Notes: a model not told the origin generated them from the letters alone. A stretch of 32,000 nt of DNA from Candidatus Saccharimonadota bacterium (GCA_965231145.1 OZ246420.1:510001-542000), one strand, 5' to 3'; counted from the first letter of the stretch, positions 1 to 32,000 are shown. Numbers and translations: made by a program.

Positions 1-1
1 A

Positions 2-238
2 CTAGGTCATTACCTAAATTATTTTCATGACGAAGACGATTCATGATTTAAATCTCTCTGCTGGGAAGGAGATACATCTATCTGTTCAAGCTCTCAGTTT
101 ATCACGAACTATGCATCTACTGAGCCAGATGAAGACTATGCAGAATCATTTGCCTATTACGCACTCAATGACCGGCCGGTCAGCAACGATCTTCTCCAGC
201 AGAAAATAGATTACTTTAGAGCAAAGTTTCCTAAGTAA
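2..238 (+). CDS. 3' end of a gene entering from upstream. C-terminal fragment of a putative metallopeptidase-like protein.
   Basis: Frame 2 is open from the window edge to TAA 236-238 if TGA 44-46 is read as Gly. The tail ...QFITNYASTEPDEDYAESFAYYALNDRP resembles the 'EDFAESF' C-terminal motif of peptidase-like families. A hairpin plus T-run follows. Confidence 0.4.
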
Positions 239-255
239 TACAAGACTTTATCGCA

Positions 256-278
256 AACAGGTTCATCCCTGTTTTTTT
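256..278 (+). terminator. Rho-independent terminator of the partial upstream gene
   Basis: aacagg-ttcatc-cctgtt hairpin followed by a T-run (272-278). Confidence 0.5.
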
Positions 279-299
279 AATTTCTCCTGCCGGAGAGGG

Positions 300-543
300 C
301 GCCTTCGAAAAGGTCTAGTCGGATATAGCACTACGAGCCTGTGTAACCCTCATGTATTGCATACGAAGTATTTCGCTGTCGCGCACATCACAGCGACTCC
401 AGCTCAATACTAACACTCCTATCATACCTCAAGATCGTAAAGAGGAGACGTGGGTATATCCGACGAATAAGAAGATACATAAATATAACAAATGATTTCT
501 AAAGCCATGTTAAAAAAAACTTCCGTGAGATACGGAAGTTTTT
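300..543 (+). ncRNA. Candidate structured small RNA of unknown family. Strand is tentative.
   Basis: A non-coding gap lies between two terminators and is clearly more GC-rich than its flanks. Long-range pairing gtcggatata (about 318-327) with tatatccgac (about 454-463). Internal 7-bp hairpin tcgctgt/acagcga. A nearly G-free stretch of about 38 nt carries CUCC motifs (actccagctcaatactaacactcctatcatacctc). It ends at the strong 512-543 terminator. Confidence 0.25.
512..543. terminator. Bidirectional rho-independent terminator (clpC on the minus strand, candidate sRNA on the plus strand)
   Basis: A8 run, stem cttccgt/acggaag, T5 run. Confidence 0.6.
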
Positions 544-547
544 CTTA

Positions 548-3133
548 TTATGCATTCATCATCTGGTCGATAAGCTGAGGTTCGATCTCGTCATAAATGT
601 ATCTTTCGATAGGACGAGCTCCAAACTGAGGATTGTATATTTTGTCGATAATTTCTTCTACTTTTTTCTTGGTAAACTTTGGTATCTTCACTCCTTCCTT
701 TTCTTTCCATGCAGCAAGGAATTCAGTTACCTTCATGACAAATATTTCACCAAGCGCTTCCTTGCTCAGGGGTCTGAAGACGATCGTATAGTCAAGTCTA
801 TTGAGAAGCTCAGGCTTCATGTGGTCTTTCAGGCGTTCCATGATGCGCTGTTTCTGCTGATCAAAGTCTTTATTTGCTATATGCTTTTCATCTCCGCCTT
901 CAAATCCAATAGATGCAATCTTTTTACCAAATTCTTCTGAACCAATATTTGATGTAAGGATAATAATCGTTGATTTAAAGTCTATCCAGCGCCCTTTATT
1001 ATCTTTGAGATGTCCTTCATCGAGAATCTGGAGTAATATGTTCAAGACATCAGGAGATGCCTTTTCCATCTCATCAAAAAGAACAATACTGTAAGGCTTT
1101 CTTCTGACTGCTTCCGTAAGTACTCCTCCTTCATCGTATCCAACATATCCTGCAGGAGATCCGATAAGTTTTGAAGCGCTATGTTTTTCCATAAATTCTG
1201 ACATATCGACACGGATGAGTGCTTTCTCGTCTCCAAAGTATTCTTTTGCAAGAAGCTTTGCGAGATAGGTCTTACCGACACCTGATGGTCAAAGGAAAAG
1301 AAATGAAGCAATAGGTTTATTTTTTTGTACTACCGAAAGCCTGTTTCTTTTGATAGATTTAACTACAGCTTCGATCGCATCTTTTTGCCCTACAACACTT
1401 CCTTCAAGGCGTCATTCAAGTCTCTTGAGCTTATCTGTCTCACTTTCTGTCACCATATGTGCTGGCACACCGATCTTATCAGCGAGGACCTGTCAAACAT
1501 CAAACACTGATACGGTAGGTCTGAGATGTTCAGGAAGCGTATTTTTCATACGAAGCGTCTTCATGTGTGCTTTGATCTTCTCTTCTTGTTCCTTTAGTTC
1601 GGCAGCCTGGAAGTAATCCTGTTTCTCGATAGCTTTTTCTATCTTTTCTTGTACACCAAGAAGCTTTTCTTCCTGTTTTTTATAGTCATTATTCTTCTCA
1701 AGCTTTTCGTTCATAGTAGACTTTCTTGCAGATGCTTCATCGATAATATCGATAGCCTTGTCAGGTAGATGCTTATTGAGGATATATCTTTTCGAGAGTT
1801 CTACTGCCTGTGCAATAGCTTTATCGTCAATGACTACTCCGTGATAATCTTCAAAATTCTTTTTAATGCCCTGAAGGATAAGCATCGTATCATGAGTATT
1901 TGGTTCATCGATATGAAGCTCCTGAAATCTTCTTTTCAGTGCAGCATCTTTTTCGATATGTTTCTGATACTCATCAAATGTGGTAGCACCAATAAGCTTG
2001 ATCTTACCACGTGCGAGCAGAGGCTTCAGCATATTTGCTGCATCAGCACTTCCCTCTTGGTTACCAGATCCGATGATCGTATGTATTTCATCGATGAACA
2101 GGATGATGTTGTTTGTCACATCAGCAGCTTCTTCAAGGATAGCTTTAAGTCTTGATTCAAATTCACCACGATATTTTGTTCCTGCAAGAAGCGTTCCCAT
2201 ATCAAGCATCATGATACGCTTGTTTTTGAGTTTCTCTGGAACTTCTCCGAGCACAATACGCTGTGCGAGTCCTTCTACTACTGCTGTCTTACCAACACCT
2301 GGTTCACCAAGAAGCAATGGATTATTTTTTGTCTTTCTCAAAAGCGTATAGATGATCTGTTGGATCTCTTTATCACGACCAATCACTGGATCGAGATATT
2401 TATCTTTCGCTTCCATCGTGAGATCAGTTCCGAAGAATTCTATCGTGAGTTTTTTCTCATCACCTTTTTTATCTTTACCCATAGTAACGGTACTACTATT
2501 GATAGTACTTTCTACTCACAAGTCCTCTCCTCCTTCCGGAAAATCATGATCCATCGCGTTGAGGATAGTATCAATAGATTCTTTTGTCTCAAATTGGAAC
2601 ATACTTATGTCATTGAGTGATAAATTAAGCTGTGATATAAGCTTACCGATCATTCCGAAAAACGCAACTATGCCTATCTGCTGAACTACAGGGTTATGCA
2701 TGAGCATTTGTAGCTTGTTCTTTATGGTTATGACGTCTGTGTCATGCTGTTGGAGGTAGTGAGCAAGTTGAGTAGACAGTTGGTCAATTGCTATGTATAA
2801 TAATACTAAAAAGTTGTTTTTTGCGTCATTGTATTGTTCAAGTTCAGCGAGCTTCATATGCAGGTTAGAACTTAGCGAAAGGTTCTTTATAGTTATAGAA
2901 GGTTGTAGCTCATTTGCTATGTCATAAAATTCTGTAATATATTTCTGGATATGAGTCGTCTCATGGAGTCCCAGAAACTTCCAGAACAGTTCAAAAAATT
3001 TCTTTTCTTTTGTATACATGAAAATACCGAGGAACATCTCATCTCCATCGATACTCTGTTTGCGTTGCGCGATACTAAATATGCTTGCATATGCAAGGTA
3101 ACGTATGTTATCTGATCCACTCTTCTTAGTCAT
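548..3133 (-). CDS. clpC: Class III AAA+ chaperone/unfoldase of the ClpC/ClpB family (861 aa, code 25)
   Basis: Track ORFs 548..1204, 1493..2482 and 2516..3133 are in one frame and joined by TGA codons (2516-2518, 1493-1495, about 1408-1410, 1289-1291). TGA 1289-1291 is the first Gly of the NBD2 Walker A motif LFL[G]PSGVGKT. NBD1 Walker A is GEPGVGKT. The short middle domain carries a UVR-like '[13 protein letters not shown]' motif, typical of ClpC. A degenerate Clp_N repeat sits at the N-terminus. Confidence 0.9.
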
Positions 3134-3156
3134 ATACCTTTTATCAGCTTCTAAAA

Positions 3157-3241: not shown

Positions 3242-3248
3242 AAGAGCT

Positions 3249-3265
3249 GTCCAAAGCTCCAAAGG
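3249..3265. repeat. Left arm of the 17-bp inverted repeat flanking the four-helix-bundle gene
   Basis: gtccaaagctccaaagg versus the reverse complement of 3729-3744 (gtccaaactccaaagg). 16 of 17 match. Confidence 0.55.
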
Positions 3266-3316: not shown

Positions 3317-3691
3317 TTATTTCTTATCAGTTGTCGCTTGTTCCTTAGTCTTATCGCTTTTCATCGCTTTCATGAGTCCGGAGATCATCTTAGCGATATC
3401 GAGAGCTTCATTGTAATATATGTCAAACGTCTTATCATCTACATAATCCAATTCTTTTGCTATATGGAGCATAGAACGGAGCTGGGCTGACGCTCATTTT
3501 GCATCTCATAGATACATAAGGGCATATTTTGACTGTTGCCCATGTCCTATAGCAATATTGTTTTGTATAGAGAAGCATGCTTTGCATATCATCTCTTTAA
3601 GGATATCCTCTACATCTTTCAAGTGAGAATAGAGAGTCACACTAAGGTCTCTAGCTTTCTGCCAGCAGTTAAGTTCTTCAAATGTTTTCAT
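3317..3691 (-). CDS. Four-helix-bundle protein (the '23S rRNA intervening-sequence protein' family), 124 aa
   Basis: The N-terminus MKTFEELNCWQKARDLSVTLY matches the family hallmark (FEDLxVWQKA). Track ORF 3506..3691 continues through TGA 3506-3508 and 3494-3496, giving ...YL[G]DAK[G]ASAQL (family 'GS' motif), and ends at TAA 3317-3319. Confidence 0.85.
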
Positions 3692-4259: not shown

Positions 4260-4703
4260 ATGAAATTTGTACAACTTAAATCAGGAGATGTTATCATTGT
4301 TTGTCATGAACAATTGAAAAGGAAAAAAGTAATTGCTATTCATGGCAGGAATATTAATTCTCCTTCACTCAAAATGGCAACTTATTCTGCAAACAGGATC
4401 TGTCCTCATACAATTGTGCATGCAGAGACAGTAATAAATCTTCTTTCCCAGAAGATACGCGAAAATTTCTATATCGGTGAGCATATAGCATCGAAAGAGA
4501 CTACGCCAGCCCAAGTAACTAAAACGCTTAAGGGTTTATGTGAAACATTACAAATACCTTATGTTGCTTGTGATCCTAAAGCTGCTCAGCAAGAGCTTGC
4601 AAGAAGGAAATTACATACACAATTACGGCGAAGGAAGTTATTGCAAGCATGAAATGCCCGGTTTATCCGGGATTTTTTTTGTAAAAAAACGACCCTAAAA
4701 TAG
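4260..4703 (+). CDS. Hypothetical protein. It is 147 aa if TGA 4650-4652 is read as Gly, or 130 aa if that TGA terminates.
   Basis: Open frame starting MKFVQLKSGDVIIV... I recognise no family. The only TGA lies directly in front of a canonical terminator, so the 3' end is ambiguous. Confidence 0.45.
4657..4680 (+). terminator. Rho-independent terminator
   Basis: cccgg-tttat-ccggg followed by a T8 run. Confidence 0.6.
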
Positions 4704-4739: not shown

Positions 4740-6728
4740 TTACCAACCTCCGGTAGCGCCACCGCCACCACTCGAGCCTCCACCAAAGCCACCGAAGCTA
4801 CTACTTCCTCCTGAACTAAATCCAGATCCACTACTATAAGTAGAACTATAAGAAGCTGCACTTGCTGCGGCACTAGCTCTTCTTCTGGTTGCCGCTCTTT
4901 CATCTTCAGCATCTCTTATATCTTTTTTTGCTCTTTCTATGGAGTCTTTAGCTTTTTTGATGACTTCTTGTAACGCCTTGTGCTTAGTAATAAGGTTTAG
5001 CATCGTTTCAGCTTCTTTAAGCATATTTGCCGCGGACTTTGCCATTTCTTTAGCTTTCCTGCCGACATCACTGTCCTTAATGATATGTAGTGCTTCTGCC
5101 GTAAGTTTAGTTGCACTTCCAATAAGAATTGGCAGATCAATAACAGCTTTTTCCCATAAAACATGCTGTGAACTTACTGTATCAAATAAAGCTATATTAC
5201 GCTTGAGCTGCTCTTCTATACTATCAAGTATTGCTTTGCTTTCAGGGAATTTCTGGTTATGCATATCATTAAGCTGCTCTGCTTGCTTTAACTTTGTTTC
5301 AATGCCGCTTATGCTTTGCTGAGCGCGAGTGAAATTTCCTTCTAAAGGAGACCATACTTCTTTTATCGCATTTGCTATGAGATATTTTAAAGCCTTGTCT
5401 GCCAATAGAATAATATCACGAAGAGGTTGTTGAGACTGTTTACGCAAAAGTGTTATCCTGCTGGCATTATCAATAGGTAACTGCAATTCAGCATCTATGC
5501 TTTGCTGCAAATTATCTATTTTCTGTTGAAGCATCTTGCTCGCATCATATAAATCTTTATGCTCTTCTATGTTTTCTAAAAGCGAATACTCTTGATCCAA
5601 TAGATTATATGCTTCCTCATCATCAGCAAAGATGGTATAAGTCTTTTGCAGTTCCAATAGTCTCTCTTTTAAAGCTGATAGCTTACCACATGTCTTTTCT
5701 TTCTCGTGTACCGCTTCAGTTTCATAGAACTTTATCTTCACTGGCAATGCTTCAACGCTCTTTTTATAAGCATTTTCTGCGTGTTCATAGCGACTAAATA
5801 AGCTCTCTATAAGTGCAATGGCTTTTTCAGGAGATGCATCAATATAGCCTTGTGCTGTTGCAAGCTCCCTTTCCATCTCCTCATATAATTTTCTTATCTC
5901 GGCTCGGTATTGGCTTGCTTCATTTTGTGCCCACGAAGGATATGTATCATGCTGCGCTTTTGCTGCAAGCATAGCCGGATCGATAGAGTTCAGTTTAGTA
6001 AGGAGAATGCTTGCTATTTCTTTTGCTTTCTTGACGGCAAGTTTATGCTCTTTTTTGCGTTTGATACTTCTATCAATGTGGTAGATAAGCAAGCATATGA
6101 GACCCAATATTATAATATATGACGCATATTGTCCTATTGTATACCACATTTCTCTTGTCTCTTGCGCCTCTTTTTCACGTTGCTTTGCTATCATCAATCG
6201 CTTTTCTTCCGATGGTATCTGAGTTTTTACATAGCTTATAAGAGTCTCTATACCATCTTTAAATCCAGCTTGAGGATCTCCATTTTTGAAATGGGAAGTA
6301 ATATTGTTATCGATGATATGTTGAGAGGTGACGTCTGTCAAATACTCTTCCATACCCTTCCCCGTTTCTATACGAACCTTCCTATCCTCCATAGCAAAAA
6401 GCAATAAGATGCCATTGTTAGAGCCTTTATGCCCTATACCCCACTTGTTGAATAAGTCGGTTGCATACTCTTCTATATTGCCTTCATAGTGGTCTTTAAG
6501 AGAAGGAATGGTCACCACTACTACTGCTATACTCGTACTCGCTTCCAGTGCGGTCAATTGCTGTTCATAATAAGCCTGAATGTCGTCACCTATAACATTG
6601 GCGGCATCGGTTATAGCTACAGGTGGATTCGGTTTTGGTAAGAGTCCGTCTTCGTCCTGAGCGATACTCAGCATACATCCTGATAAGAGGATTATCAGAG
6701 ATAAGATACTTTTAATTTTTTGTTTCAT
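4740..6728 (-). CDS. Lipoprotein with a TPM (YgcG-like) domain, one TM helix, a helical/coiled-coil region of about 400 aa and a Gly-rich tail (662 aa)
   Basis: Signal peptide plus lipobox (LLSGC). TPM-domain motifs are present (ITDAANVI..., NNGILLLFAMEDRKVRIETGKGMEEYLTD). The C-terminal GGFGGGSSGGGGATGGW is typical of YgcG-like proteins. Confidence 0.85.
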   Translation of the reverse strand: MKQKIKSILSLIILLSGCMLSIAQDEDGLLPKPNPPVAITDAANVIGDDIQAYYEQQLTALEASTSIAVVVVTIPSLKDHYEGNIEEYATDLFNKWGIGHKGSNNGILLLFAMEDRKVRIETGKGMEEYLTDVTSQHIIDNNITSHFKNGDPQAGFKDGIETLISYVKTQIPSEEKRLMIAKQREKEAQETREMWYTIGQYASYIIILGLICLLIYHIDRSIKRKKEHKLAVKKAKEIASILLTKLNSIDPAMLAAKAQHDTYPSWAQNEASQYRAEIRKLYEEMERELATAQGYIDASPEKAIALIESLFSRYEHAENAYKKSVEALPVKIKFYETEAVHEKEKTCGKLSALKERLLELQKTYTIFADDEEAYNLLDQEYSLLENIEEHKDLYDASKMLQQKIDNLQQSIDAELQLPIDNASRITLLRKQSQQPLRDIILLADKALKYLIANAIKEVWSPLEGNFTRAQQSISGIETKLKQAEQLNDMHNQKFPESKAILDSIEEQLKRNIALFDTVSSQHVLWEKAVIDLPILIGSATKLTAEALHIIKDSDVGRKAKEMAKSAANMLKEAETMLNLITKHKALQEVIKKAKDSIERAKKDIRDAEDERAATRRRASAAASAASYSSTYSSGSGFSSGGSSSFGGFGGGSSGGGGATGGW

Positions 6729-7284: not shown

Positions 7285-7824
7285 TTATCCAAAATAATGG
7301 TGGTATCTTTTTACTTGCTCCCAGTAGGTTTCCAAAAGTTCTTTATAAAGCGTATGATCTGCAAAATATTTGTTTCCATAGTAGATGAAAACTGGCGCTT
7401 TGAAAAAGAGATACGATTGTATCAGCGGAAGAGTGCAGTTATGACACTCAGAAAGATTGTGTATGAGATCAGAAATTTTCACTGCCCAGGCATCGGTATT
7501 TTCTTCTTTTATCATCCTTCCTATCATGCTCGACCGAGCTTTATACTTATCTTCTTGATGATACTGATTGTTATGGCTAACGAGGTCAACAAGATGTATC
7601 GTACGATCAGTGTATCAAAGTTCTTTTAGTTGCGCAAATGTATATCCCCCATCTTCGACTATATCATGAAGATAACCTGCATTTACTATCTCTTCAGAAA
7701 ATCCATGTCTCTCGAGAATTTCACCTACTGCAACAGAGTGCAAATAGACTGGAGTTTGTAGTCACTTACGCATTCAAGGGATCGCTTGTCTGAGTATCTC
7801 AATCGTCTGTTCTTTGGTTGGCAT
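7285..7824 (-). CDS. HD-domain protein of the HD_4 type, resembling a RelA/SpoT-like (p)ppGpp hydrolase (179 aa)
   Basis: Start MPTKEQTIEILRQAIP[G]MRK[G]LQTPVYLHSVAVGEILERHGFSEEIVNAGYLHDIVEDGGYTFAQLKEL[G]YTD... shows the H...HD...D metal motif. Three TGA-Gly codons join it to track ORF 7285..7527. Confidence 0.8.
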
Positions 7825-7876: not shown

Positions 7877-9229
7877 TTACTTATTAGTAATTAATGTGTG
7901 TTCGACATGTTTCTGTATTCCCTCATCTATCATTTTCTTCAGTTCAAACTCTCATCGCGGCAATGCATAACAATTATCATATGTGGCAATAGGCGTATCG
8001 TCAAAAGACTTTTGGACGAATGTACTTTCAGAGATGTTATTTCCCTCACAGTATTTTTTGACGAGTGCATCATCCCAAAATGTCATGTCTGCTCTGTTCT
8101 CTTTTACAAAGTTCATGACTTCTTCGATATGCGAAAGTTGAGGTACTCTGACTAATCTTGCGTGAGGGAAATATTTCTGAGCAAGCTGTTCATGGATATC
8201 ATTTTCTTTTACAGCAATCCTGAGTTTCTGATTTTGCTTCAGTGTTTCAAGATCTTGCTGTGCATAAGGCGAATCAGCGCGCATATACGCATATACATGA
8301 CTTTTCATGAGCGACTGTGAGAAAAACATTTCCAGTTTTCTTTCTGTGCTTGGCCACGTAGGACTACAAAAGATATCAATATATCCAAGATCGAGTCTCT
8401 GTGTCAGTGTTCCATAGCCGCTCTGCTCTACAAACTCAAGCTTGATGTTATTATCGTCTGCTATTTTACTGATGATCTCATAGAACTTTCCACTATACGT
8501 TCCATCATCATTTCTCATGAAATAATCGAAATATGGGACATATGAACATCTCATGACTCCTCTTTCCTTAATCACTTCCCATCTTGTTTTTTGTCTTTCT
8601 GCAAAAGAAAGATACATTTCATACGGAGCTTCTAAAAGAACAAAATCTATATACATCCTTATTTTGTTGTCGAAAACTCCTGCAATATAGTCTTCAAACA
8701 CACGCCAGTTTTTATGATACACATACGTTATTTTATCAACACCAAAGAAACCAGGCGCAAACTCTAAAAATGCTATCTCTGACAGGAGGTAATGAGTAGC
8801 CTGCTTTACATCTTCATCTGTATATGGTTTTCAGGAATTCTGCAGTACTTCTTTAGAAGTTTCGTTTGCAGATTTCTCAAATTCTTGGTTTGTATCATAT
8901 AACTGTTTCACTTCATTGAAATGCTTAAGATAATTTGGATTATCCTTCACTTCATTATCCCAATCTACAATAAGAATATTTTGATCCTGAATACCAAGAT
9001 CGTTGATGACGCGTCTAGTTCTATTTTTTAAGCCGTTACCATTGAGGATAGCTTTATTCCTCGCTTTGCCTGGGTTATATCCCATAGCAAGATACGTAGA
9101 AATTGCTGGCACATCAGCGACCATGATCGCTGCCTTTCCATATCTTTTGATGCATTCTCTGAGCAAAAAAGCTACTTCCTTATCTTTGAAGTAACTGTTT
9201 CCCGGAGACATACCGATGATTGAAAGCAT
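7877..9229 (-). CDS. tRNA-dependent cyclodipeptide synthase (CDPS, NYH-type) fused to a C-terminal type-2 periplasmic-binding-protein (SBP_bac_3-like) domain (450 aa)
   Basis: Track ORFs 8831..9229 and 7952..8722 share one frame and are joined by TGA 8831-8833. TGA 7952-7954 extends the gene to TAA 7877-7879. CDPS hallmarks are IIGMSPGNSYF (compare AlbC GISAGNSYF; catalytic Ser at 9206-9208), THYLLSEIAF (Y..E) and TYVYHKNW (Y-H). The C-terminal half carries SBP_bac_3 hallmarks (CSYVPYFDY..DGTYSGKFYEII, SPTWPSTERK, YALPR[G]EFELKKMIDEGI). Confidence 0.8.
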
Positions 9230-10389: not shown

Positions 10390-12498
10390 TTAAAATTCGT
10401 ATTTTCTGCTTATTTCTCTTTCTATAACCATAGAAAGTTTCGAGATAACGATAGAAATTTCATTTTCAAAAATATCAATCTTCTGATAATTTTTATTATA
10501 TCAAATATAATGTAAGATTGCATGATTCTGTTCTTTATGATTCATTTTTGCTCTTAACTTTACAATATAGAGTAATAAATTTAAGTGTTCTCTTAATTCA
10601 GGAATTACTTTTATTATTTTTTCCTTTTCTCTACTCTTTCAACACATAATCAATCATCTTTGTCATTGGAGAACTACTGTAACATATTCATTATAAATAA
10701 GTGAATAAGCAATAGTAAGTAATCAATTAAATAAAGAATGAATATCTGCAATAAAGCTTTCATTATGTAAATAGAAAATCGGGAAAAGAGATTTAATGAC
10801 AATTAAATTATCAATTATTAGATCTAAAGAATACGCTACTGGCTTTTCTATTATTTGATCATTAGTTAAATTTTGTATTTTATTAGACAGAGACCTAAAT
10901 GCGTCTACATTATGCTGAAAAATAGTATTAAATTTTATGCCTATGATATTTTCTTTTACAGACTCTTTGCTTTGAGAAATCATATTATGTAATCATTTTA
11001 ATCTACTCAATTGTAAATAATTATCAAAAAACAACCTTTTCTTCTCGCTTAAAAATCATAATGCTATTGGATTATTGTTTTCTGTAATTGATTCAATCAA
11101 ATAATACTGCAAATCACTACGTGCACTCTGATTTTTTATTATTTTTAAATTTTTATAAAGCATAACTAAAGTATTATCCGTAATAATATATTTATATTTT
11201 CTCAAAAGGTTTATAAAATTATTCATTATACTATGATCATATTTGTTGATTAACTCCATAATCAAAGCTAAGAAATTAGTTTCAGATATAGTTATTAACG
11301 TAAGAACACTTTTTTCCTCTTCTTCTTTAGCAGAAGTTAATATATCATAAATAGATACTAAAAAATGATGGGTAACTAATAGCGAGGCACCCGCTATTGT
11401 ATAAAATCGTTTGAAGTATTGTTTTAAAAATCATTTTTCTTCTTGAATATTTTTTAATCATATGTCCATTAGATCTAAATATGCTTTAATATCAGAGACC
11501 TTATGCTTTTTTAGATTATTAATATTAATTTTGACTTTATTCTTATAATCAGACGTTTTTTTTGCATTTTCATATGATTTTTCTGCATTAGCAGTTAGCC
11601 CTCTTTCATTAAATTCTTTTTTTATCTTTGCAGCTTCTTCTTCTAAAAGAACCTTGTTATCTCCGAAAAAATAAAAATCGTCTACATAATATATCATGCT
11701 TATCTTATCATTAATAACATAGATACCATTTTTTAATTTTATATCTAGCAAGCAATCTGGATTAAATAATACTAACCAAGTAAATAAAGAAGCAATAAAA
11801 TCACAACCCAAGATAGACTGAGGAAGTCATACATTATTAAAGCCATTCACCTTAAAGAGAGCCATAGAAAGTTCATACATAAAATTATCTATTCAAAATT
11901 TCTCGTACTCTTCATAAGTTAAATATAATTTTAATATCTTATGCAATAATCCAATGAAGTGGTTATGATTTATACTATCATAATAAGATTTAATATCATA
12001 TTCCATTACTCGTGCTTTATTCTTTAATAGATTCTTTTTTATTTCCTCAAACTTAGTCCATAATCCTCGATAGGGAAGAATTTTTCAATTATTCTGAAAA
12101 TCCAATTGATGTCCATATGCAAAATACATATTTGAAATAAGCTTATTAGATTTTACATCATCATTTTTAAATATACAAGCTAATATATTGATAAGTTTCT
12201 CAATATATGTCTCAAAATAAATCACATTATAGAGGTTAGGAATTCTATATGTTCTTACATCAAGATTAATTTTAGATGAAGTTGTCTTACAAATGAAAGG
12301 TGTGTGGCAATTTTCAACAGCTAAATTAAAATGTTTTAATTCTTCATCGCTTATTCTAAGAATGTTTTCATTTAAATGAAAAAAGAACTTATCATAAAAT
12401 AAACTTCCTATTTTATTGGCTCTTGAGAAATATTCATTACTCTTAGATGTTATATATCTATTACATACTTTGAGTATTATGGATTTATCGACTGACAT
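10390..12498 (-). CDS. Stand-alone reverse transcriptase with a long helical C-terminal domain. Resembles Abi (AbiA/AbiK) or UG/DRT defence RTs (702 aa, code 25).
   Basis: Track ORFs 12085..12498, 11458..11811, 11056..11265 and 10723..10983 plus the gaps between them form one frame with 12 in-frame TGAs, ending at TAA 10390-10392. RT motifs appear in canonical order: VRTYRIPNL (motif 1), MEYDIKSYYDSINH (motif A), NV[G]LPQSILGCDFIASLF (motif B), IYYVDDFYFFG (motif C, YVDD = 11677-11688), ERGLTANAEKS (motifs D/E). Confidence 0.85.
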
Positions 12499-20991: not shown

Positions 20992-21849
20992 TTAAAGCGA
21001 TGCAGTATCCTTAATTTTCAGCATGCGATTGGAAATAGCAAGATATGCTTTGAGGATTCTTTGTGATTTCGTTGCCATTATCATCCTCCAGACAATATTA
21101 GAAAGTGTTTTGACTCCTAATATCATAATTAAAGTGGCAACAGAATATCCTTCCTTACGATAAATAATATATTGCCGTCTTGCATTTGTAAAAATACTTC
21201 TACTCTTAAAGTTTTTGACCTCATGAATTCTGTAAATAAATACAGGTTGAGGTATCATGCGAATAGTGTACTTTCTCGTAAAACTTAAATGATAGTCCCA
21301 ATCAGCAAAAAGCCCAACTTTTTCATCAAAAAGAATGTCTTTATCAAAACGAAATAATGTTCATCAAAATCCAAGCGCATTATTATTCTTTAAGAAATCT
21401 TGATGAGATAGGTTATATGGATCCTTATATTTTATAGGCTTTTCTGAGATAAATTCGCCACGTGCATTGATATAATATCTCATTCCGCCTACTGCTCCTA
21501 TATCTTGTGAAGCATGTAGCTCACTATACAGTGCATACAAGCTATTATTATCATAAAATTTATCGTCATCCGAAAGGAAAATAATATATTTTCAGCGAGC
21601 TTTCTGTAAGCATTTATTTCGATTTGGCACCATTCATATATTTCTTTCGTTTTTATGGTATTTTATGTACGGATATCTTTTTATATAATCTTCTAACACT
21701 TCAGATATACTCATATCTTTGCTGTTATCTGTGATAATAATTTCGATATTTTTTTTATCAATACCTTGTTGCCTCAGGCAACTTTCTAAGCATTCAATAA
21801 TATACTCTTTACGATCGCACGTGGGGATAAGTATAGAAATTTCGTACAT
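20992..21849 (-). CDS. GT2-family glycosyltransferase (285 aa)
   Basis: ISILIPTCDRKEYI, IIITDNSKD, ERNI[G]MVPNRNKCLQKAR[G]KYIIFLSDDD. Track ORFs 21634..21849 and 20992..21258 share the frame. Stop is TAA 20992-20994. Confidence 0.85.
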
Positions 21850-22144: not shown

Positions 22145-23002
22145 CTATTCTTTCCAAAAGTGACAGTCATGATCATCCACCCACTTGTGCTTGTTGAAGC
22201 CATATGAAGCCATAAGTTCCATGGTTTTATGTTTAGTCTCCGTACGAGGCATGATCTCAATAATCATATCTGTGTGCTTGATGTTCGATAAGAGCTCTTT
22301 CATCCCCTTCAGTACTTCGTATTCAAAGCCTTCTACATCCATGATGATCAGGTCAGGCTGTATTCATAATTCCAAGCTATCATATCTTTTGACTGGAACC
22401 TCTATATGTTTTTGGTTTTCAGTCTTACGATTTGAGTTATGAGCAATCATTTTAGAAGAGGCGTCGTTGTCACTCACATAGTCGAATAATGTCGTGCCAT
22501 CTTGTTCACCAAGACAGAAATTGTACAAATGCATCTTATCCTCTACTCCAGAAAGGATGCTATTGATCTTGAGTGTCTGAAATGTGTTTGGACTTGGCTC
22601 AAAACAGTATGATGTATATCAGTATTTTTTACTTAGTTCTATAGCAAATCTTCCTATGTGTGAGCCAATATTGAGAAATACTTTTTCTGACTTATGCGAG
22701 GTCTTCTTCACATTATGCTGTATGACTTCCTGTATTTCAGGTTCATAGTCTGGGATAAGCACTGTCCAGTGGTTGACCGTAGAACCAAGAAATGTTCCAA
22801 ATGGAGTATGAAAAATAAATGCTTTATGAAAAAGCTTATGTGTTTTTGAGACAAACTTCCAGAGAAGTCAGCCAGCAAGAGCATTACATGTATAGAGTAA
22901 TGCAAGTACAAGATACCTCCGCATAAAATCTATGCTTCCTGAGATCCTTATATATCGTGGTATTGAAGCTACTTTACTGAGTAATCTTTGTAATTTCTTC
23001 AT
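22145..23002 (-). CDS. FkbM-family methyltransferase (285 aa)
   Basis: ATG 23000-23002. VFLNIGSHIGRFAIELSKKY[G]YTSYCFEPSP and PDLIIMDVEGFEYEVL. There are 3 in-frame TGA-Gly codons. Stop is TAG 22145-22147. Confidence 0.8.
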
Positions 23003-23006
23003 GATC

Positions 23007-24059
23007 CTACAAATAAGTTAAAGTGGTAGTATAGACCTCATTGACCGAGATGGCATCCATCTCTGTTCATGTACACTGGGCAAAACTTCCATATGCGTCA
23101 TAACATTCAAATTTCATTTTCCAAATCCACTCCCCTGCATATTTTTCTGCTCTTGTATGATGCGGATACAGTCTCTGGGGATCAGTTGGTCATGCCATGA
23201 CAACAACCGGTACGCCTGCACATGCACTGAAATGCATAAAGCCGCTTTCCTGACAAACCATCACATCCATATAACTCATAGCATCTATGCTCTCCCTCAG
23301 CGAGAATTTTCCTGTCATATCATGATATCACGCATGGATCATATCCAATTTTCTATCGGTCGGTCAACCAAATGCGAACACATCGTATCCCTGATCAAGG
23401 AAATGCTTGATAAGAGTCTTCCATTTTTCCAATGGCCATCGTCTACAGTCACCGTTGCCATGGATGCTCTTTGAGATTTGATTTCCCCCACCCAGAGCGA
23501 TACCAATGCACTTTTTTTTCCACTGTGGACGCAGATGAGCAAAGAGTTCGTCTACTTTTTTACTTTGCATAGAAGCATACTCATATGATTGGTCATCGAG
23601 ATCTGGTTTTACTCCTATAAACTGACCAAGCTGGAGATAGTGCTCTACCTCTCTTCCCTGCTTGTCCCAGTAAAGTTTATGTGTCAGAAACTTTCCATCT
23701 TTCCCAAGCCTATCAAGACCTACTCTTTTCTGAAATCATGCGAGCTTTGCGATCAATCCAAAGATCCAGTGTCTATCGAGGATAACTATAGTTTTATAGA
23801 AGTAGTGTTGTCTTAGTTCACGAAGCTTCCGGATAAGCGATATCATACCGAGGATATTACGGATGGTCTTTTTTTCAAAAATCTTTTCGGCAAAGGTAAA
23901 CTGTTCGTCTATAGTAGCATTTCATTGTAATATAGCTGCTGATCTTTTTCCCACAAGATAGCCTACTTTTGCTCATGACATTTTTGTCTGCCTCAAAAGC
24001 GGCGTCGTCATGAGCACATCACCGATAGCACCTATTTTAAAGAAAAGAATCGACTGCAT
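23007..24059 (-). CDS. GT9-family glycosyltransferase (ADP-heptose-dependent heptosyltransferase-like, 350 aa)
   Basis: ILFFKIGAIGDVLMTTPLL, IALGGGNQ...RRWPLEKWKTLI, VCQESGFMHFSACAGVPVVVMA[G]PTDP. There are 7 in-frame TGA-Gly codons. It contains track ORF 23364..23570 in frame. Confidence 0.8.
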
Positions 24060-24063: not shown

Positions 24064-25260
24064 TTACTTCTGCTTATGAGTTAAGAAATCTTTATAGATA
24101 GAAAGAACTGTTTGTATACAATCATCCCATCTAAATACTTTAGGATGAATATGCTCAGGCTCTACAGTACCATCGAAATATCCTCTGATCGTATGTGCAA
24201 TCTGCTTTGAATTTCCTGGTTCAACAAACATAATCTCACCCGATACCACTTCCGGGATTGATGCAACATTTGTCGTAATAAGCGTCTTATGCATGGCACA
24301 GACTTCTGCGATAGCGAAGCCAAAACCCTCTGCCTGTGAAGGAAGCACGACAAGGTCTGCTGTCTGTATCCACTGTTTGAGGGTGTTCCATGGCGCTCCA
24401 GGTATATGAGTAATATGTGATTTATAATGCGTTAACATACCATCATATTGCTGTTCATCTATAGTAGAACGGATAAGCCCTGCTTTTTTTTTCGTATCCT
24501 GTGGTACGATCAATACAAACTGGATGTGCTTATTATTATCTATTACGCTTGGAATAGCCTGCAATACATCATCGAGTCACTTTGCAACTCATGGTCTTCC
24601 AAAGAACAAGACTATCTTCTTTTCACCAATATTATAATGTTCTCTCAGTGTATGTATTTCCTGATTTCATTTTGAATTCTGCTCTTTGAATTCTGAGTTA
24701 TTTCGGAAATCGTAATCAATAGCATTGTAGACTGTCATGAGTTTCTTGTCTGGCAGGCCATATACTATCCTCAGATTATTTTTCGTATAGTTTGAGACAC
24801 ATAGATACTTATCAAATGTGAAGCATTGAAAAATAATATCTTCAAGCAGACGAGAGAAGAATCCCATAGCACCGATAAAGCGATACCAAAGCTTTCCATA
24901 GATCTCATGCACATGCAGCACTGTAGGTATTTTCGTCAGTCTTCTTACGATACCTGCCGGGATCGCAGCCATAAATGTTGTCGCATGAATAAGATCAATA
25001 TGCTTATGATAACACAGCCAGTTTGCTTTTCTTAACCCATACCACATAAAGTCAAATCTTCCGTGTCCAACTCTATAAATTGTGCATCTTTCCGCATACT
25101 CTTCTTGTGCAGGTAACGCTTGATCATAACGCGAAGTGACGATAGACACTTCGTGTCACTCTGCGAGTACTCATTCGATGATTTTCGTAAAAAGCGTCTC
25201 TACTCAACCAATATGAGGAGCAAAGTACTCAAGCACGAAGAGAATATGTTTTTTATGCAT
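24064..25260 (-). CDS. GT4-family (group 1) glycosyltransferase (398 aa)
   Basis: ILFVLEYFAPHI[G][G... region, then LVVLPSQAEGFGFAIAEVCAMHKTLITTNVASIPEVV (EX7E-type motif). Track ORFs 24064..24564 and 24667..25149 are in one frame. Confidence 0.85.
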
Positions 25261-25984
25261 GACGCTTTTTTGACTGAAAGCGATAAATGAAAAGTGTTTT
25301 TATAGCAAGCCACCCATCGATAAACTTTATTTTCTTTCACTGAGTATGCTTTCTTGGATAGTAATGAATAGGTATCTCTCCATAAGAGTATCATCTTCTA
25401 AGCAATAACATAGTAGCTGCGGGTTCCCATGCAAAGTCATTTTCTTTTGGAGAGAGAAGGAGATTTCTGCACTTCTTATGATACATCTTATAGCAGGTCG
25501 GTTCATCAGTGACAAGTCTCAGGGCGAGAAGAGATGTAAGAAATGATACAGTAAGCCCACCGAAAAGAAATCAAAATGTAGAGTATTTCATACCAAACTT
25601 GCTGTAACCGCGAGTTCTGGATCCATAACAGATATCTAGATTCTTTTTTTCCATCTTCTGAAGCATGGGAATCAGATCGTGGGGCTCATATTCAAGATCA
25701 GAGTCCTGTATCACATAGACGTCACCTGTCGCTTTTGCTATGCCCTGCTTTATACTATATCCTTTTCATCCATTTGGATGTGAGATATAATGAGCTTTTC
25801 CTTCATATTCACTGAGAAATGTTTGTATAATATTTTCACTTTCATCTTTGCTTCCATCGTTAACAATGACAAGTTCCTTGTCATATCACAGATGGAAAAA
25901 ACTGAGCCTTGCGACTTTTGCAAGCAGCTCTCCCACATAACGCTGTTCATTGTATACAGGTATGATGATAGAGATTAATTTCAT
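25253..25984 (-). CDS. GT2 polyprenol-phosphate glycosyltransferase (DPM1/GtrB/CsbB-like, 243 aa)
   Basis: ISIIIPVYNEQRYV, VIVNDGSKDES, HPNG[G]KGYSIKQG, YVIQDSDLEY. TGA codons break it into pieces under 60 aa in the standard-code track. Stop is TAA 25253-25255. Confidence 0.85.
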
Positions 25985-26391
25985 GATTTCCTCGAGAAGT
26001 TAAAGTAATGGTTCATGACAAAGTTCCATACAAAGACTACTGCTTTTGCGACGATAGAACCAATCAAATAATGGATACCTCGTGTCTCTACTAGTCCCTG
26101 GAGGATAAGAAGATTTATCCCCAATCCGAGGAGTTGAAAGATCAGAAATACGAAAGCCTGTCTTCGATGCCTTCATGAGAAATCACGAAAGGTAAGGTAT
26201 TTCTGGAAGTAAAACCCACAGGTAAAGCTGATAACAAACGCAAGGGCTTGCGAGATAAGGTAATATATACCAAAAAAGTGTGTGAAAAACCAGAGGAAAA
26301 AGAGATCGATCAGCGCTGCGATCCCTCCCCCAATACCATATCTGATAAGTTTTGAGTTATGCCATATATTTTTACTCCGCTGCAACATCAA
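25975..26391 (-). CDS. GtrA-family membrane protein (138 aa)
   Basis: LIRYGIGGGIAALIDLFFLWFF...AKAVVFVWNFVMNHYFNF. TGA 26173-26175 joins the two halves. Confidence 0.8.
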
Positions 26392-27823
26392 AAAGCAATG
26401 CTGAGTAAGTAAAGAAAATGACTAGCACCATCGTAAATACTCTGTTTGACGTAGTTTGATCTAACACGAACTTATAGTTCTCTGTAAAGAGAAATACAGC
26501 GAGGAAAATAGCCAGGATAACTACTGGAGCGAGCAACAAGAACCATTTTTCTTTTGCTATTTTCTTGCGGTATACCAGAAGAGAAAGAGCAATAAAGAAC
26601 ATGAGAAGTGGTGCAATCGAGAAGTTATTCATAGACCACATAGACTTCCAGATAGCAGGCAATACTTCCCAGTGGATAGTAGAGGCTAAACCAAGTCATG
26701 CATCGGCACCTGCTGCCTGATTAAATCCTAAGTTATAATATGATTTGATAAATGTGAATGGCGCTATGAAAAAGAGCACAAGTACTATGATGAAAAGCCA
26801 TGTAGACTGTTTCTTAAAGATCTGTAAATACTCTCTGCTTTGTTCACGATAGATAAGCCCATAGATAACGAGCGCAATAAGTACGCCGACCATATAGACG
26901 ATAAATCCATCGTTCTTTATATATGAAAGCATACACAAAAACGAGATACCAAGGATGAAGTCGTGCTTATGACTACCATCTGCAAGCCATTGATAGAAGA
27001 AGATGATAGCTATGGCTGTATAGATTGCCGAAAGCATATCCATGTATCATTGTGTTGTATGCATGAAGATGAGCGGAAGCGAAACGATGATAGCAGGCCC
27101 TACAAGAGCTTTTAGCATATCTTTCGTACGCTCATAGACAAATGTCTTACTAACCCCAATAAACGCAACTACCGCAAGCCATGGAAAAATGTTTACATAG
27201 ATATCATTATATCCTCCCATGACATGAGAGACAAATGCTTGAAATGAAGGTATCATGAGTGGATATCCAAGTCTTGCTCTCGCCAGTATCTCGCCTACCT
27301 GTCCAAAGATCTTTATACCTCCATCGTAGAGTATGTTCATAACAGGAAGATGCCAGTTACCAAAAGCATCGTCTGCATAACTTGGGAAGTTTGTTACAAA
27401 GATGAAACTTGTTACGAGGAAAATAATGATAAGAAGAGAAAGTATGATAATTATAGCTTTTGAAAGCGCTGAACGCTGGTTCCAATTATGCTTGAGATCA
27501 TGCAGAGGGAAAACTATTTTGCATGAAACAGTAAGATCTTTAAGCTTCCATCCCTCAGTTCTCATTCTCACCATGAGAAGAATCAGCAATGCTACGACTA
27601 AGATAATATACGCAGCTCGATCTACACCAAAGCGGACAAACTGCAGAAGAAAAAGTCCATATCCAACAACAGCAACACCTGTAAACCAGCTTATGAGATA
27701 GAACATAGCACCACGAAGATGCTTACCGGCTAAGAGATGAAGAGCGATAACACCAGGGATGAGTGGAACAAGGATATATGCGAGCAGATGTCAGAGTAGC
27801 AGTCAAAGAGAAGTAGAAAACAT
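26372..27823 (-). CDS. Polytopic membrane protein, putative GT-C-fold glycosyltransferase (ArnT/PMT/YfhO-like, 483 aa)
   Basis: Track ORFs 27047..27706, 26696..27043 and 26372..26662 are one frame joined by TGAs, with the start at ATG 27821-27823. It has more than 10 hydrophobic helices and an acidic first-loop motif SYADDAFGNWH. It sits next to GtrA and the GT2. Confidence 0.6.
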
Positions 27824-28842
27824 TAGCGGCTTGTGTTATCAAATAAAATGAAGTTACTTCCTGTTAACAAAGGCGTTCATGTTTCACTATTTGGCATGGT
27901 GTTATAGAATAACTGGTAATCTGCCATAGATCATGTAAGTACCGGATCGCATGGACGTAAATAGACTGAATTCCAGTGTGCATCAAACGGCCAACTCATG
28001 TGTGACTTGGCATAGATAGTACATTTCTTTCATCTCCATGCATCTAGATCATCCAGAGAAAGAGTTTGTCTCACTTTGTTAGTAACGTTGATATAGTCTC
28101 CAAGATCAAAAAATACTTTTTGTTCATCCGTCGCCCATGTAAATGTCGTTAGACCAGTGTATGTCACGCGAATGTTGTCCATCATAAGTCTTATACCACC
28201 GATAATGATCACTCCTATCATGATAGCTCCAGTCATCATCACAAGCTTTTTGAGTCCAATATTTTTCATGCGGATCGCTCCGATCAATGCTGCGACGATA
28301 ACTACTATCAATGCAAAAAATGGCCATGACCATGCTCCTATCATCGGACCATAGCGAAGATTTATGCTGTAAGGAGCGAGTGTCTCAAGCTTAAGAAATT
28401 TATCCCATACCCAACTCAGTTTTGCACTCACTGTTCTGTTTTGTAGTTGTATTGTTACATTATTTACACGGAGTGGTCATGCGACAAGAAACACCACCTG
28501 TACACCCTCACTTGGAAGCTGTGCTGATGCTCTGTCATCGGCAAATATCCATTTGATAGGCTCAGTTGTACCTGCTGCAGGCTGCATCATAGCAGTATAG
28601 ATCTGCCCTCCGATAAGATATCCATATCCCCACAAACCTGTTCACGCTTGGGTTCCTCATGCTACTGACACCACATCAAAAGCTCATTTATCACCAAGGA
28701 GCATGACACATGTGCTTTGACATCGAAAGTTAACACCACTTCATGATTCGCTGTATTGATTGAATCCTTGCTGCTGGTAAGCAGCAGTATAGCTGGCTCC
28801 AAACGCCAATAGTCACACGAGTACGAGAAGATACTTTTTCAT
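27823..28842 (-). CDS. Hypothetical exported/membrane protein (signal peptide plus 2 TM helices, 339 aa)
   Basis: Starts MKKYLLVLV[G]LLAFGASY. It includes track ORF 28030..28431, continues through TGA 28030-28032 and ends TAATG-overlapped with the next gene (TAA 27823-27825). Confidence 0.6.
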
Positions 28843-28865
28843 GAGCATAATATATGATAAAAATT

Positions 28866-29789
28866 TTATTCTTCCATCTCAGCAGCAGTAACAATGCTTG
28901 TTCCCATTCTTCATACGACGATGCCACTTGCTCTATTTCCATAGTCCATCGCTTCTAAAAGCGATTTTCACTGAGAGAGGGCTGTTGCAACGGCTGCGAG
29001 GAATGTATCTCCGGCGCCGGTTACATCCACAATTTCCTTTGCATGAGTACGACGATGTACTATATCTCATTCACGTGGAATAAGTGTAGCACCTTTACCA
29101 GATCTTGTGACAATAATATTGGCATTATATTTTTCTATCATTTTTCTTCATTCTTCTTCTACCAGTTCATCTTCATTTTTTAGCTCTTCGTTTCCAGCCA
29201 TAGTACGGAATTCAGTAAAGTTAGGCTTAATAATATGAACGCCCGCAAACATACTACTATTCTTAGGCTTGGTATCAACTAGTATTTTGATATTATTTTC
29301 ACGAGCGTATTGTTTTATTTTATCTACCCGATCGGCACTAATAGTTCCTTTAGCGTAATCCGATATAACAATATATTCAGGAGTTTCTCTAGTGAGCACA
29401 CGTAATATTTGTTGTTTATGTTCATCACCAAGAAATATTTTTTCCTCAGCATCTAGTCTTAATAAGTATTGATTATCTGCGATAACTCTTTGTTTTACAA
29501 TAGTTGGAGCATCGGTATATAAAGGCTCAAGGTTTACTCATGCTTTAGTAGCATGATCAGTAAAGAGACTACCATTTATGTCTTTTCCAATAGGAGCAAT
29601 CAGCATGACTTCACCAAGAAGAGATGCGATATTTGCTGCAACATTTGCTGCACCACCAAGTTTATATTGTTCCTTGTTATTGTCTATCTTTACTAAGTGC
29701 GCCGCAGAATTTTCAGGATTTACTCTATTAATATTTCCATAGGTATATCTATCAAGCATCACGTCACCTATTACTGCAATCTTTCCCAT
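28866..29789 (-). CDS. hldA: D-glycero-beta-D-manno-heptose-7-phosphate kinase (RfaE/HldE domain I, PfkB family, 307 aa)
   Basis: It recalls E. coli HldE domain I along its whole length: VIGDVMLDRYTYG..R..PE, GGAANVAANIASL, VISDYAKG, IKPNFTEF, DVTGAGDTF, ASGIVV[G]RMGTS (TGA 28911-28913). Confidence 0.88.
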
Positions 29790-29807
29790 TAGTACACTTC
29801 ACCTTAA

Positions 29808-30884
29808 CTATTTAAAGAATAATTTCTTATAGATCATTTCTATCAGTATCTTCAATGCATTTCCATTTTTCTGCCCTTTCTGCAAACTGTATTCGGTATA
29901 TTTAATGCGAACTGGTACCTCTTTATAGCGAAGATGATTTCTTCTAATACAATCGAGCAACTCAGATGCATAGGTCATACCATCTGAACTCAGATGGATC
30001 TGTTCAAGAACGCTTACATGCATTGCTCTATAGCCATTGTGTGGGTCACTGATAGTAAGTCTGTTAAAAACAAGCGTCACGAGCTTTGAACCTCGTAGTA
30101 CTATCTTTCTTCCAAAAGGCATATTTTCCGCTTCTCCGCCCTTAATAAACCTCGATCCAAGAAATATTTTCGTCTCAGGATGTTTTGCTATCATCGCATG
30201 AAACTCTTCCATATCGGAAATATCCATCTGTTGATCCGCATCATAGGTAATGATCCACTCTATATGCAATTCTTTCGCATGATGTCTCAAGAAATGTAAT
30301 CCTGTCTTATTTGCAGCTCCTCCTCCTCTATTGATAGGATGTGAGATAACAACAATGGTTTTTTCTTTATATTTTTCCTGTTTCTTCTTGATTTCTTCGA
30401 CCGTATTATCTGTACTACCATCATTGACTATCACGATAGTGCTGTAACCAGCACCGATGATCTCATCGATCACATACCCAATAGTTTTTTGTTCATTATA
30501 TGCTCTTATGAGGAATGCATATTTTCCTTTTTCTCCATGATGAGCTCCATGCGAAGGCATAGCAGTACGCTCGATCGCAAGTGCACCGACGAGTCTTGTT
30601 GTATGAAATTTCTGCTTCGTGAGTTCATTGAGCAGCTCAAAGTAAAAGTATCCTAAGACAATGAGTGCTCCATAGACAATAATATCTGCCACTCTTGCTA
30701 CTCCAAATGTATTGGCAAATTTCTCCTGAAATCCTGGGTAGAAAAGCGATGCGAGGATGATAGCAGCTCCGCCGACAAATATAAGAAAATGGATGAAATT
30801 AAGCTTTCTTCTCTGCAATCCATCTATAGCAAACAGCAAAAACAGTATACTGGCAATAATCAGTATAAAACTCAATGGACTCAT
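29808..30884 (-). CDS. GT2 glycosyltransferase with an N-terminal DUF2304-like membrane domain (358 aa)
   Basis: An intact ORF with no TGA. Three N-terminal TM helices are followed by FLIRAYNEQKTI, VIVNDGSTDNT, NRGGGAANKTG and TYDADQQ. Confidence 0.8.
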   Translation of the reverse strand: MSPLSFILIIASILFLLFAIDGLQRRKLNFIHFLIFVGGAAIILASLFYPGFQEKFANTFGVARVADIIVYGALIVLGYFYFELLNELTKQKFHTTRLVGALAIERTAMPSHGAHHGEKGKYAFLIRAYNEQKTIGYVIDEIIGAGYSTIVIVNDGSTDNTVEEIKKKQEKYKEKTIVVISHPINRGGGAANKTGLHFLRHHAKELHIEWIITYDADQQMDISDMEEFHAMIAKHPETKIFLGSRFIKGGEAENMPFGRKIVLRGSKLVTLVFNRLTISDPHNGYRAMHVSVLEQIHLSSDGMTYASELLDCIRRNHLRYKEVPVRIKYTEYSLQKGQKNGNALKILIEMIYKKLFFK

Positions 30885-30900
30885 CTGTTTTTTTACAAAT

Positions 30901-30931
30901 AAAAAAATCTACCAGTAATTGGAGATTTTTT
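30901..30931. terminator. Hairpin terminator downstream of xseA
   Basis: A7 run, stem atct(a)cc/ggagat with one bulge, T6 run. Confidence 0.4.
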
Positions 30932-30999
30932 AGTCATTTAGCCATAAATTGCAATGAAAAGCTTATGAACAGCCTAGGCTGATACGCTACACTTTTTAG

Positions 31000-32000
31000 C
31001 TATTTCTTATCTTTTATTTCAACGGTAAACGCTTGATCATACACTTTCACCTCTATCTTATCCCCTATCCCTAATCCCTCTATCCTTTTCTTAGTCATAT
31101 ATTCTCCATTGCTCAAGAGCAGTGCATAGCCACTTTGGAGCATCTTTTCTGGCGATGTCGCCATAATCGTCCCATACCAGCTGTTAATATGAAATCTTGT
31201 CTCACGGACAAAACGTCAGAGTTTTTCACTGATACTACTATTCCAGAGTTCAATATTATTTCTTATCTCTTCTTTCTTATTTTTTATATTTTGAGCAATA
31301 TTTTCATAGAGAGTAAGAAGATGTCCTTCCCACATCTGCATAAGCTCAATAAGTTTATATGCTCCATCGGTAGGAGTCTTCGCGCCATATCGAGCAATAT
31401 CCTGTAGAATAAACTTATCAGGCGTGTGACCAATAGCTACAATGACTGGCACTGGCATCAGACAGATTCCTTTAGCGATATTGAGATCGTTCTGCCAGAT
31501 CATACCACTACTCTCTCCACCTCCACGGATGATAGCGACAGCATCTATTTTCTTTCACGCTTTTATGTCAGCATAAATCTTTTGCAATTGTCCATGTACT
31601 TCGTCCATAGCGTTGTTTCCATGGATCGCACAGAAATAGTTCTCATACGCTACAGCATAACCACTATGTTTCATCACTGTTTGAAAGTCTTTGAGCCCTA
31701 CAGCCGTTTCTGAAGAGATAATAGCAACTGTATAAGATGGATATCATGGCTGAAGTTGCTTGTTATTGTACGCTATGCCGAGTTTCTGCAGTTCTAGAAG
31801 GATATCATCCTGTTTCTTTTGTAACTGCCCTATCGTAAACTCGGCGCTGAGTTCTTTAATCACTATGCTGAAGCCATGTTCCTGGTGAAAAGAAAAATAG
31901 CCATGAAACAGTATCTTTGCTCCGGCAAGTTCACTCAATGCGCGAAGCTTCGTATTTCTAAGAAATGCATGGACAATAGCCTCGTCGAAAATACAAGCTT
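31000..32000 (-). CDS. xseA: Exodeoxyribonuclease VII large subunit, 3' portion (the 5' end lies beyond the window)
   Basis: ...IIRGGGESSGMIWQNDLNIAKGICLMPVPVIVAIGHTPDKFILQDIARYGAKTPTDGAY (the xseA hallmark GHE/TxD...TPT). Track ORFs 31744..31938 and 31216..31503 are in one frame joined by TGAs. Stop is TAG 31000-31002. Confidence 0.85.

Follow-up and report, generated by a model that had tools for sequence, protein, structure and literature searches.

The window analysed here, a stretch of 32,000 nucleotides recorded as Candidatus Saccharimonadota bacterium (GCA_965231145.1 OZ246420.1:510001-542000), very probably belongs to the chromosome of an uncultured Patescibacterium of the Absconditabacteria (SR1) type, with an altered genetic code. 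UGA would encode glycine, CGA and CGG would encode tryptophan, and UAA and UAG would be the sole stop codons. Three codons would depart from the standard bacterial code (UGA to glycine, CGA to tryptophan and CGG to tryptophan), and no gene of the window ends in UGA. An earlier sequence-only reading had assigned the whole window to genetic code 25. The glycine part of that claim stood, with UGA neither stop nor tryptophan; the code number did not, as 40 CGA/CGG codons behave as tryptophan. This deviation lay beyond the reach of any check that the earlier reading had proposed.

UGA as a glycine codon

The GC content across the window is 37.6%. Taking TAA and TAG as sole stops gives 29 genes, which cover 89.9% of the sequence. 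If the true frames are split at TGA, fragments of at least 60 aa account for 58.4% of the window. In-frame TGA codons occur in 25 of the 29 genes, 117 in about 9,600 codons, and in-frame TAA or TAG codons in none. Genes end on TAA (23) or TAG (6) and never on TGA, in agreement with the sequence-only reading. Each of the six full reading frames of the window contains 311-383 TAA and TAG codons, so the restriction of gene interruptions to TGA is not due to chance. Pfam domains run through TGAs in about 20 genes; they include ClpB/ClpC AAA+, malic enzyme, PfkB, GT2, GT4, GT9, FkbM, CDPS with SBP_bac_3, XseA and others. TGG alone yields 1.02% tryptophan, a normal level. Glycine amounts to 5.1% from GGN codons and to 6.3% if TGA is added.

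The residue aligned to each TGA was tabulated in distant, standard-code homologues, a count that had been put forward as able to refute a glycine UGA. For 36 evaluable TGA columns, glycine was the commonest residue in 24 and tryptophan in none. The six TGA codons cited in support of the original claim are all located on the coding strand and inside the named motifs: LFL[x]PSGVGKT of ClpC (1289-1291), NV[x]LPQS of a reverse transcriptase (RT)-like open reading frame (ORF; 11827-11829), KTFG[x]VNA of malic enzyme (13464-13466), HG[x]PGKARNW[x]A of a GT2 glycosyltransferase (17637-17639), VMA[x]PTDP of a GT9 (23190-23192) and GIVV[x]RMGTS of a PfkB/HldA-like kinase (28911-28913). The description of these sites as invariant glycines holds for part of them. 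The ClpC codon encodes the glycine of the second Walker A motif, with G in 78/78 homologues from 78 genomes; among the remaining ClpC TGA columns, one is dominated by alanine and two are variable. In the GT2 at 17439-18374, glycine is commonest at 8 of 11 TGA columns (six with 50-53 and two with 35 and 29 of 55 distant homologues), and both HG[G]P and NW[G]A have glycine in 53/55. The GT9 has glycine as the commonest residue at 4/7 columns in 23 distant homologues, including A[G]PTDP with 22/23. For malic enzyme, 6/8 TGA columns are glycine-dominant and none is tryptophan-dominant in five solved structures. The motifs PVME[G]KA and FPG.F.[G]A have glycine in 5/5 PDB chains, yet the cited KTFG[x]VNA is not invariant, with G in 3/5 and D in 2/5. 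The kinase motif VV[G] has glycine in the single solved heptose kinase and T or Q in ribokinases. A GT4 has glycine as commonest residue at 5/6 TGA columns, in 28 to 44 of 44 distant homologues. The [G]LPQS of the RT-like ORF was judged against the textbook RT motif B. Closer database relatives of GT2, GT9 and GT4 have a mixture of W and G at TGA columns. By its pattern, this mixture is the footprint of TGA translated with table 4 alternating with real GGN codons.

Two relatives syntenic with the window enabled a comparison at codon level: L086 (SRR32417865, a 240-kb contig) and L087 (SRR20702428). They share the cluster of CDPS, malic enzyme, flippase, glycosyltransferases and PfkB at 45-80% protein identity. 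Together with the ClpC locus of an SR1 metagenome-assembled genome (MAG; L001), they provided 10,917 aligned codon pairs. A tblastn search of all window proteins against 80 ClpC-centred loci matched nothing beyond ClpC. Window TGA was paired with GGN 101 times, with TGA 31 times and with TGG never (0/164). Window TGG was paired with GGN only three times (Fisher test of TGA against TGG, p = 4e-44). The aligned columns and codon pairs show UGA to be translated, with glycine as its meaning; it is neither a stop nor a tryptophan codon.

CGA and CGG as tryptophan codons

The codon pairs separate CGA and CGG (CGR) from the arginine codons. Among 46 window CGR pairs, 29 are with CGR, 9 with TGG, 8 with other codons and none with a codon for arginine or lysine (AGR, CGY, AAR). 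True arginine codons (AGR, CGY) are paired with arginine or lysine codons 304 times, with TGG once, with CGR four times and with other codons 81 times. Restricted to the TGG and Arg/Lys partners, the comparison of CGR with the true arginine codons gave p = 1.4e-16 (Fisher test). CGR is paired with TGG or CGR in 38/46 cases (83%), a rate that matches the conservation of TGG (85%). Window CGA is found opposite CGA (21), TGG (5) and CGG (4), and window CGG opposite TGG (4), CGR (4) and other codons (5), in both cases without an arginine or lysine codon. In the reverse direction, window TGG is opposite CGA of the relatives 31 times and opposite CGG 15 times. A check of all codons found TGA, CGA and CGG to be the sole codons off table 11. 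The 30 arginines of ClpC are encoded by AGA (14), AGG (2), CGT (9) and CGC (5), without CGR. By these counts, arginine appears to be encoded by AGR and CGY only, and CGA and CGG set the window apart from table 25, in which all codons other than UGA are standard.

Individual sites illustrate the exchange. The malic enzyme CGA at 13146-13148 is TGG in both L086 and L087, and the CGA at 7955-7957 in the CDPS-SBP fusion is TGG in L087. In the flippase, the CGG codons at 14603 and 14732 each face TGG in one of the two relatives and CGG in the second, and the CGA codons at 14501 and 14825 are CGA in both. The GT4 CGA at 24703-24705 is located in an aromatic column, with F 33, W 8, L 2 and Y 1 and neither R nor K in 44 distant homologues. 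The same column has W 42 and R 25 in relatives from Gracilibacteria and Absconditabacterales. Near-invariant tryptophan columns of the distant homologues carry CGG or CGA in L086 and L087 or an 'R' in database translations of relatives. These columns are the K-x-W-P motif of GT9 (W 19/23), columns 125 (W 41/44) and 378 (W 38/44) of GT4 and column 205 of GT2 (W 54/55); CGG is found in relatives on the columns of GT2 and GT9.

Among code-25 relatives taken together, proteins named Gracilibacteria and Absconditabacterales by NCBI included, 'R' likewise occurs at near-invariant tryptophan columns, and GT4 column 125 has R 35 and W 32. Two CGA codons seemed by eye to fall on motif arginines, a conflict that PDB and family alignments removed, as both columns are variable. 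The CGA at 21619, seemingly on the arginine of a GT2 'ARN' motif, is in a column with L/S/R/C/R in GT2s. At the CGA at 23439, seemingly on the arginine of the GT9 K-R-W-P motif, distant GT9s mix L, I and R and relatives alternate between R and W.

CGR codons are used at 28 (CGA) and 13.5 (CGG) per 10,000 in the window and at 69 and 24 in the two relatives. The 40 CGR codons of the window, 13 of them CGG, represent about 29% of the tryptophan codons (40/137), compared with about 53% in the two relatives.

Some observations weigh against the proposed code. All evidence for it is comparative. Of the evaluated TGA columns, 12/36 are variable and uninformative. Support for CGG is thinner than for CGA, with 13 codons and four TGG pairs. 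The GT9 CGG at 23829-23831 (q77) aligns with R or K in 14/23 distant homologues and with Y, I or L in close relatives. The GT9 CGA at 23439-23441 (q207) aligns with R in 7/23, and the CGA of the DUF2304-GT2 protein with K in its only solved homologue, a DPMS. The reassignment may have left such columns as lineage-specific replacements, or they may hint at ambiguous decoding. The decoding tRNAs and the loss of the release factor gene prfB are argued by analogy to the clade. ARAGORN detected no tRNA in the window, the two flanking contig pieces L081 and L084 (41 kb of contig in total), three other assemblies or the loci of the three relatives, and prfB is not encoded in the readable 41 kb of the genome. 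According to the published biology of the clade, a tRNA-Gly(UCA) with G1:C72, C2:G71, G3:C70 and U73, together with the loss of release factor 2, would account for UGA. A tRNA(UCG) or tRNA(CCG) of tryptophan identity, marked by G73 and the lack of A20, would read CGA and CGG, and arginine would be carried by AGR and CGY.

The GT9 CGG at 23829-23831 may also be the footprint of an ancestral CGG arginine site that was forced to change upon codon capture.

Lineage, public gene calls and alternative readings

The assignment to an SR1- or Absconditabacteria-like lineage, a group that the sequence-only reading had named as a known user of code 25, agrees with the ClpC matches. The top of 599 matches among GTDB representatives was the candidate division SR1 bacterium LacPavin_0818_WC45_MAG_33_22. 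This MAG has 67% identity across NBD1 and 54% along the entire protein; none of the other matches exceeds 63%, over partial alignments. Named relatives of the GT4 are Gracilibacteria or Absconditabacterales. Membership in Absconditabacterales or in BD1-5 (GTDB class JAEDAM01) was judged, tentatively, from ClpC and GT4, in a window that has neither rRNA nor a ribosomal protein marker. A changed meaning of CGA as well as CGG is in keeping with Absconditabacterales.

Two window proteins free of TGA, one of them the DUF2304-GT2 protein, served to locate the sequence in public assemblies. Its match is the Logan contig ERR4405440_10954 (47,372 bp, reversed), identical to the window except that positions 1-435 lie beyond the contig. 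Identical DNA was assembled independently in four runs (ERR4405440_10954, ERR4405439_14530, ERR7850080_32362 and ERR4405441_134786). The run accessions had no hit in a search of the literature. The genes of ERR4405440 were called at full length with table 4, and its self-proteins P0001 and P0155 have a tryptophan at every TGA. ERR4405439, ERR7850080 and ERR4405441 were called with table 11 and contain fragments of 38-256 aa. This bears out the expectation that standard-code calling would shred the locus. PfkB became two 83-aa pieces and GT4 pieces of 101 and 166 aa. For the CDPS-SBP fusion, which had been expected to be missed, the table-11 call on ERR4405441 keeps a 256-aa SBP piece and has lost the CDPS half. 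Table 11 leaves 4/29 genes intact. Due to the mixture of table-4 and table-11 calls, public proteins are either tryptophan-substituted at glycine sites or fragmentary.

A standard code in a decayed locus or an error-ridden assembly would explain the 25 of 29 genes interrupted under table 11. The interruptions are exclusively TGA (117 versus no TAA or TAG), frameshifts are absent and domains are intact across the TGAs. The relatives retain these genes, with TGA and GGN exchanged for each other, and identical sequence was assembled independently in four runs. This explanation is refuted and its probability is close to nil. Table 4 with UGA as tryptophan, the code of the public Logan call on the contig, restores the same open reading frames, and the tryptophans of P0001 and P0155 are its product. 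The column counts refute it: tryptophan is dominant at no TGA column and glycine at 24/36. TGA is never paired with TGG in the relatives (0/164), and the tryptophan content would reach an abnormal 2.25%. UGA as tryptophan is highly improbable. Equally remote is a phage or mobile element with a recoded stop codon in place of a cellular genome. Recoded phages exist, and the RT-like ORF lies in a low-GC patch of the window. Against this reading, the window with its flanks encodes housekeeping functions (ClpC, malic enzyme, XseA and pyruvate kinase), two relatives share its 15-gene glycan cluster in syntenic order, and phage structural genes were not seen.

Plain NCBI table 25, with UGA as glycine and CGA and CGG still read as arginine in this genome even if they changed in the relatives, has a somewhat better standing and is improbable. 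It could draw on the often basic columns at GT9 q77 and q207 and at the lysine of the DPMS homologue, and on the lower CGR usage of the window than of the two relatives. It conflicts with the lack of any arginine or lysine codon in 46 CGR pairings, of which 38 are with TGG or CGR. It also conflicts with the GT4 column, where no R occurs in 44 distant homologues, with the TGG of both relatives at the malic enzyme CGA 13146 and with a ClpC that encodes 30 arginines without CGR. The CGR codons on basic columns (GT9 q77, q207 and the DPMS-like lysine) leave room for residual or ambiguous decoding. A takeover of CGA and CGG by tryptophan caught in progress in an SR1 sub-lineage, with residual or ambiguous Arg/Trp decoding, is conceivable and rather unlikely. 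If true, it would provide a natural genome series for following the reassignment of a sense codon and a metaproteomic target for ambiguous decoding. The reading with UGA as glycine and both CGA and CGG as tryptophan remains the preferred one.

Gene content and known codes

Read with TGA as Gly, CGA/CGG as Trp and stops at TAA and TAG, the window (1-32000) contains 29 genes. A ClpC/ClpB-type AAA+ chaperone of 861 aa (548-3133, − strand; Pfam) has four TGA and no CGA or CGG among its 30 arginine codons. It is followed by a 23S_rRNA_IVP-family small protein of 124 aa (3317-3691, −; two TGA). A TPM-domain membrane protein of 662 aa (4740-6728, −; Pfam) has no TGA and two CGA and is intact under table 11. 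Its tail is rich in glycine and serine and yet free of TGA, unlike its neighbours; a pyruvate kinase of 477 aa just beyond the window (L081 7113-8546) likewise has no TGA. Between the small protein and the TPM-domain protein, a candidate ORF of 147 aa (4260-4703, +) is located on the strand opposite to its neighbours. It has four CGA/CGG within 15 codons, reads LRRRKLLQAGNARFIRDFF under table 25 and has no Pfam match; its status as a gene is doubtful.

An HD-domain protein of 179 aa (7285-7824, −; Pfam) has three TGA and one CGG. The adjacent CDPS + SBP_bac_3 fusion of 450 aa (7877-9229, −; Pfam) contains two TGA and the CGA at 7955-7957. It is the best-conserved protein of the cluster (L086 1-524; L087 1955-3316), with 80% identity to both relatives versus 45-74% for its neighbours. 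The RT-like ORF of 702 aa (10390-12498, −) is located in a patch of 27% GC between the malic enzyme and the NUDIX and CDPS genes. Its motifs are GLPQS, with the TGA at 11827-11829, and then YVDD. CRISPR-associated and DRT/UG reverse transcriptases matched it only weakly, with E = 5.6e-9 at best. The ORF is not found at the same position in L086 or L087, which have other genes there. Its 12 TGA and three CGA indicate that it has resided for some time in a host with a changed code. The malic enzyme of 379 aa (12624-13763, −) has eight TGA and the CGA at 13146-13148.

All three genomes have the glycan cluster in syntenic order, but with variable cassettes. A Polysacc_synt flippase of 446 aa (13982-15322, +; Pfam) has four TGA, and its four CGA/CGG are located within hydrophobic segments. 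A lineage-specific protein of about 435 aa (15328-16635, +) has 12 TGA and five CGA/CGG. The GT2 glycosyltransferase of 311 aa (17439-18374, +) contains 11 TGA. In-frame TGA also occur in the cluster genes for FkbM (16635-17429, +), an MT11 methyltransferase (18365-18901, +), MT (18932-19966, +), GT2 (19969-20757, +), another GT2 (20992-21849, −) and a second FkbM (22145-23002, −). L086 and L087 lack orthologs of MT11 and of the GT2 at 20992-21849; in place of this GT2, L086 encodes an acetyltransferase (12855-13277). A GT9 heptosyltransferase-like protein of 350 aa (23007-24059, −) has seven TGA, the CGA at 23439-23441 and the CGG at 23829-23831. It is followed by the GT4 glycosyltransferase of 398 aa (24064-25260, −; six TGA, CGA at 24703-24705), a GT2 (25253-25984, −; five TGA), a membrane protein (26372-27823, −; four TGA) and an unknown protein with up to 10 TGA (27823-28842, −). 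The PfkB/HldA-like sugar kinase of 307 aa (28866-29789, −) has five TGA and one CGG. A DUF2304 + GT2 protein of 358 aa (29808-30884, −) has no TGA and one CGA. XseA, the large subunit of exonuclease VII (31000-32000, −), leaves the window and would end at 32190; three TGA and one CGA are within the window.

The value of the code assignment is practical, as the code decides how every other feature of the window is read. Table 11 fragments 25/29 genes and reduces coverage from 90% to 58%. Table 4 writes a tryptophan at 117 glycine sites. Table 25 writes an arginine at 40 tryptophan sites, about 29% of the tryptophan positions, and this includes motif tryptophans in the relatives. The three-codon correction should be applied whenever the RT, the CDPS fusion and the glycosyltransferases are searched for homologues, modelled in structure or scanned for motifs. 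This is also relevant for public protein databases.

Both reassignments are already published, and the window is a further instance. UGA as glycine was described for Candidate Division SR1 and Gracilibacteria (Campbell et al. 2013; Rinke et al. 2013; both as cited in PMC8629427). For Absconditabacteria, Codetta predicted UGA as glycine and CGA and CGG as tryptophan (Shulgina and Eddy 2021, eLife, PMC8629427), and the same code was restated for Absconditabacterales (PMC13092985). The window resembles this code in all three reassignments, the low GC content (37.6%), arginine encoded mainly by AGA and an SR1 MAG as the nearest genome. The published usage per 10,000 is below 37 for CGA and, in most species, below 7 for CGG (PMC8629427). 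CGA of the window is within this range at 28; CGG is above it, with 13.5 in the window and 24 in the two relatives.

Table 25, which NCBI uses for the clade according to gTranslate, shares UGA as glycine and UAA and UAG as sole stops. It keeps CGA and CGG as arginine, unlike the window. Table 4 of Mycoplasmatales and insect endosymbionts is similar in having UGA as a sense codon and in the AT-rich genomes; it differs in the amino acid, with UGA in the window being read as glycine and not as tryptophan (no tryptophan-dominant column). In Anaerococcus and RFN20 Bacilli, CGG encodes tryptophan (PMC8629427), likewise an arginine codon of the CGN box captured by tryptophan. Only CGG changed in these bacteria and CGA stays arginine, whereas both appear to have changed in the window, as would be expected if one tRNA(UCG) reads both codons.

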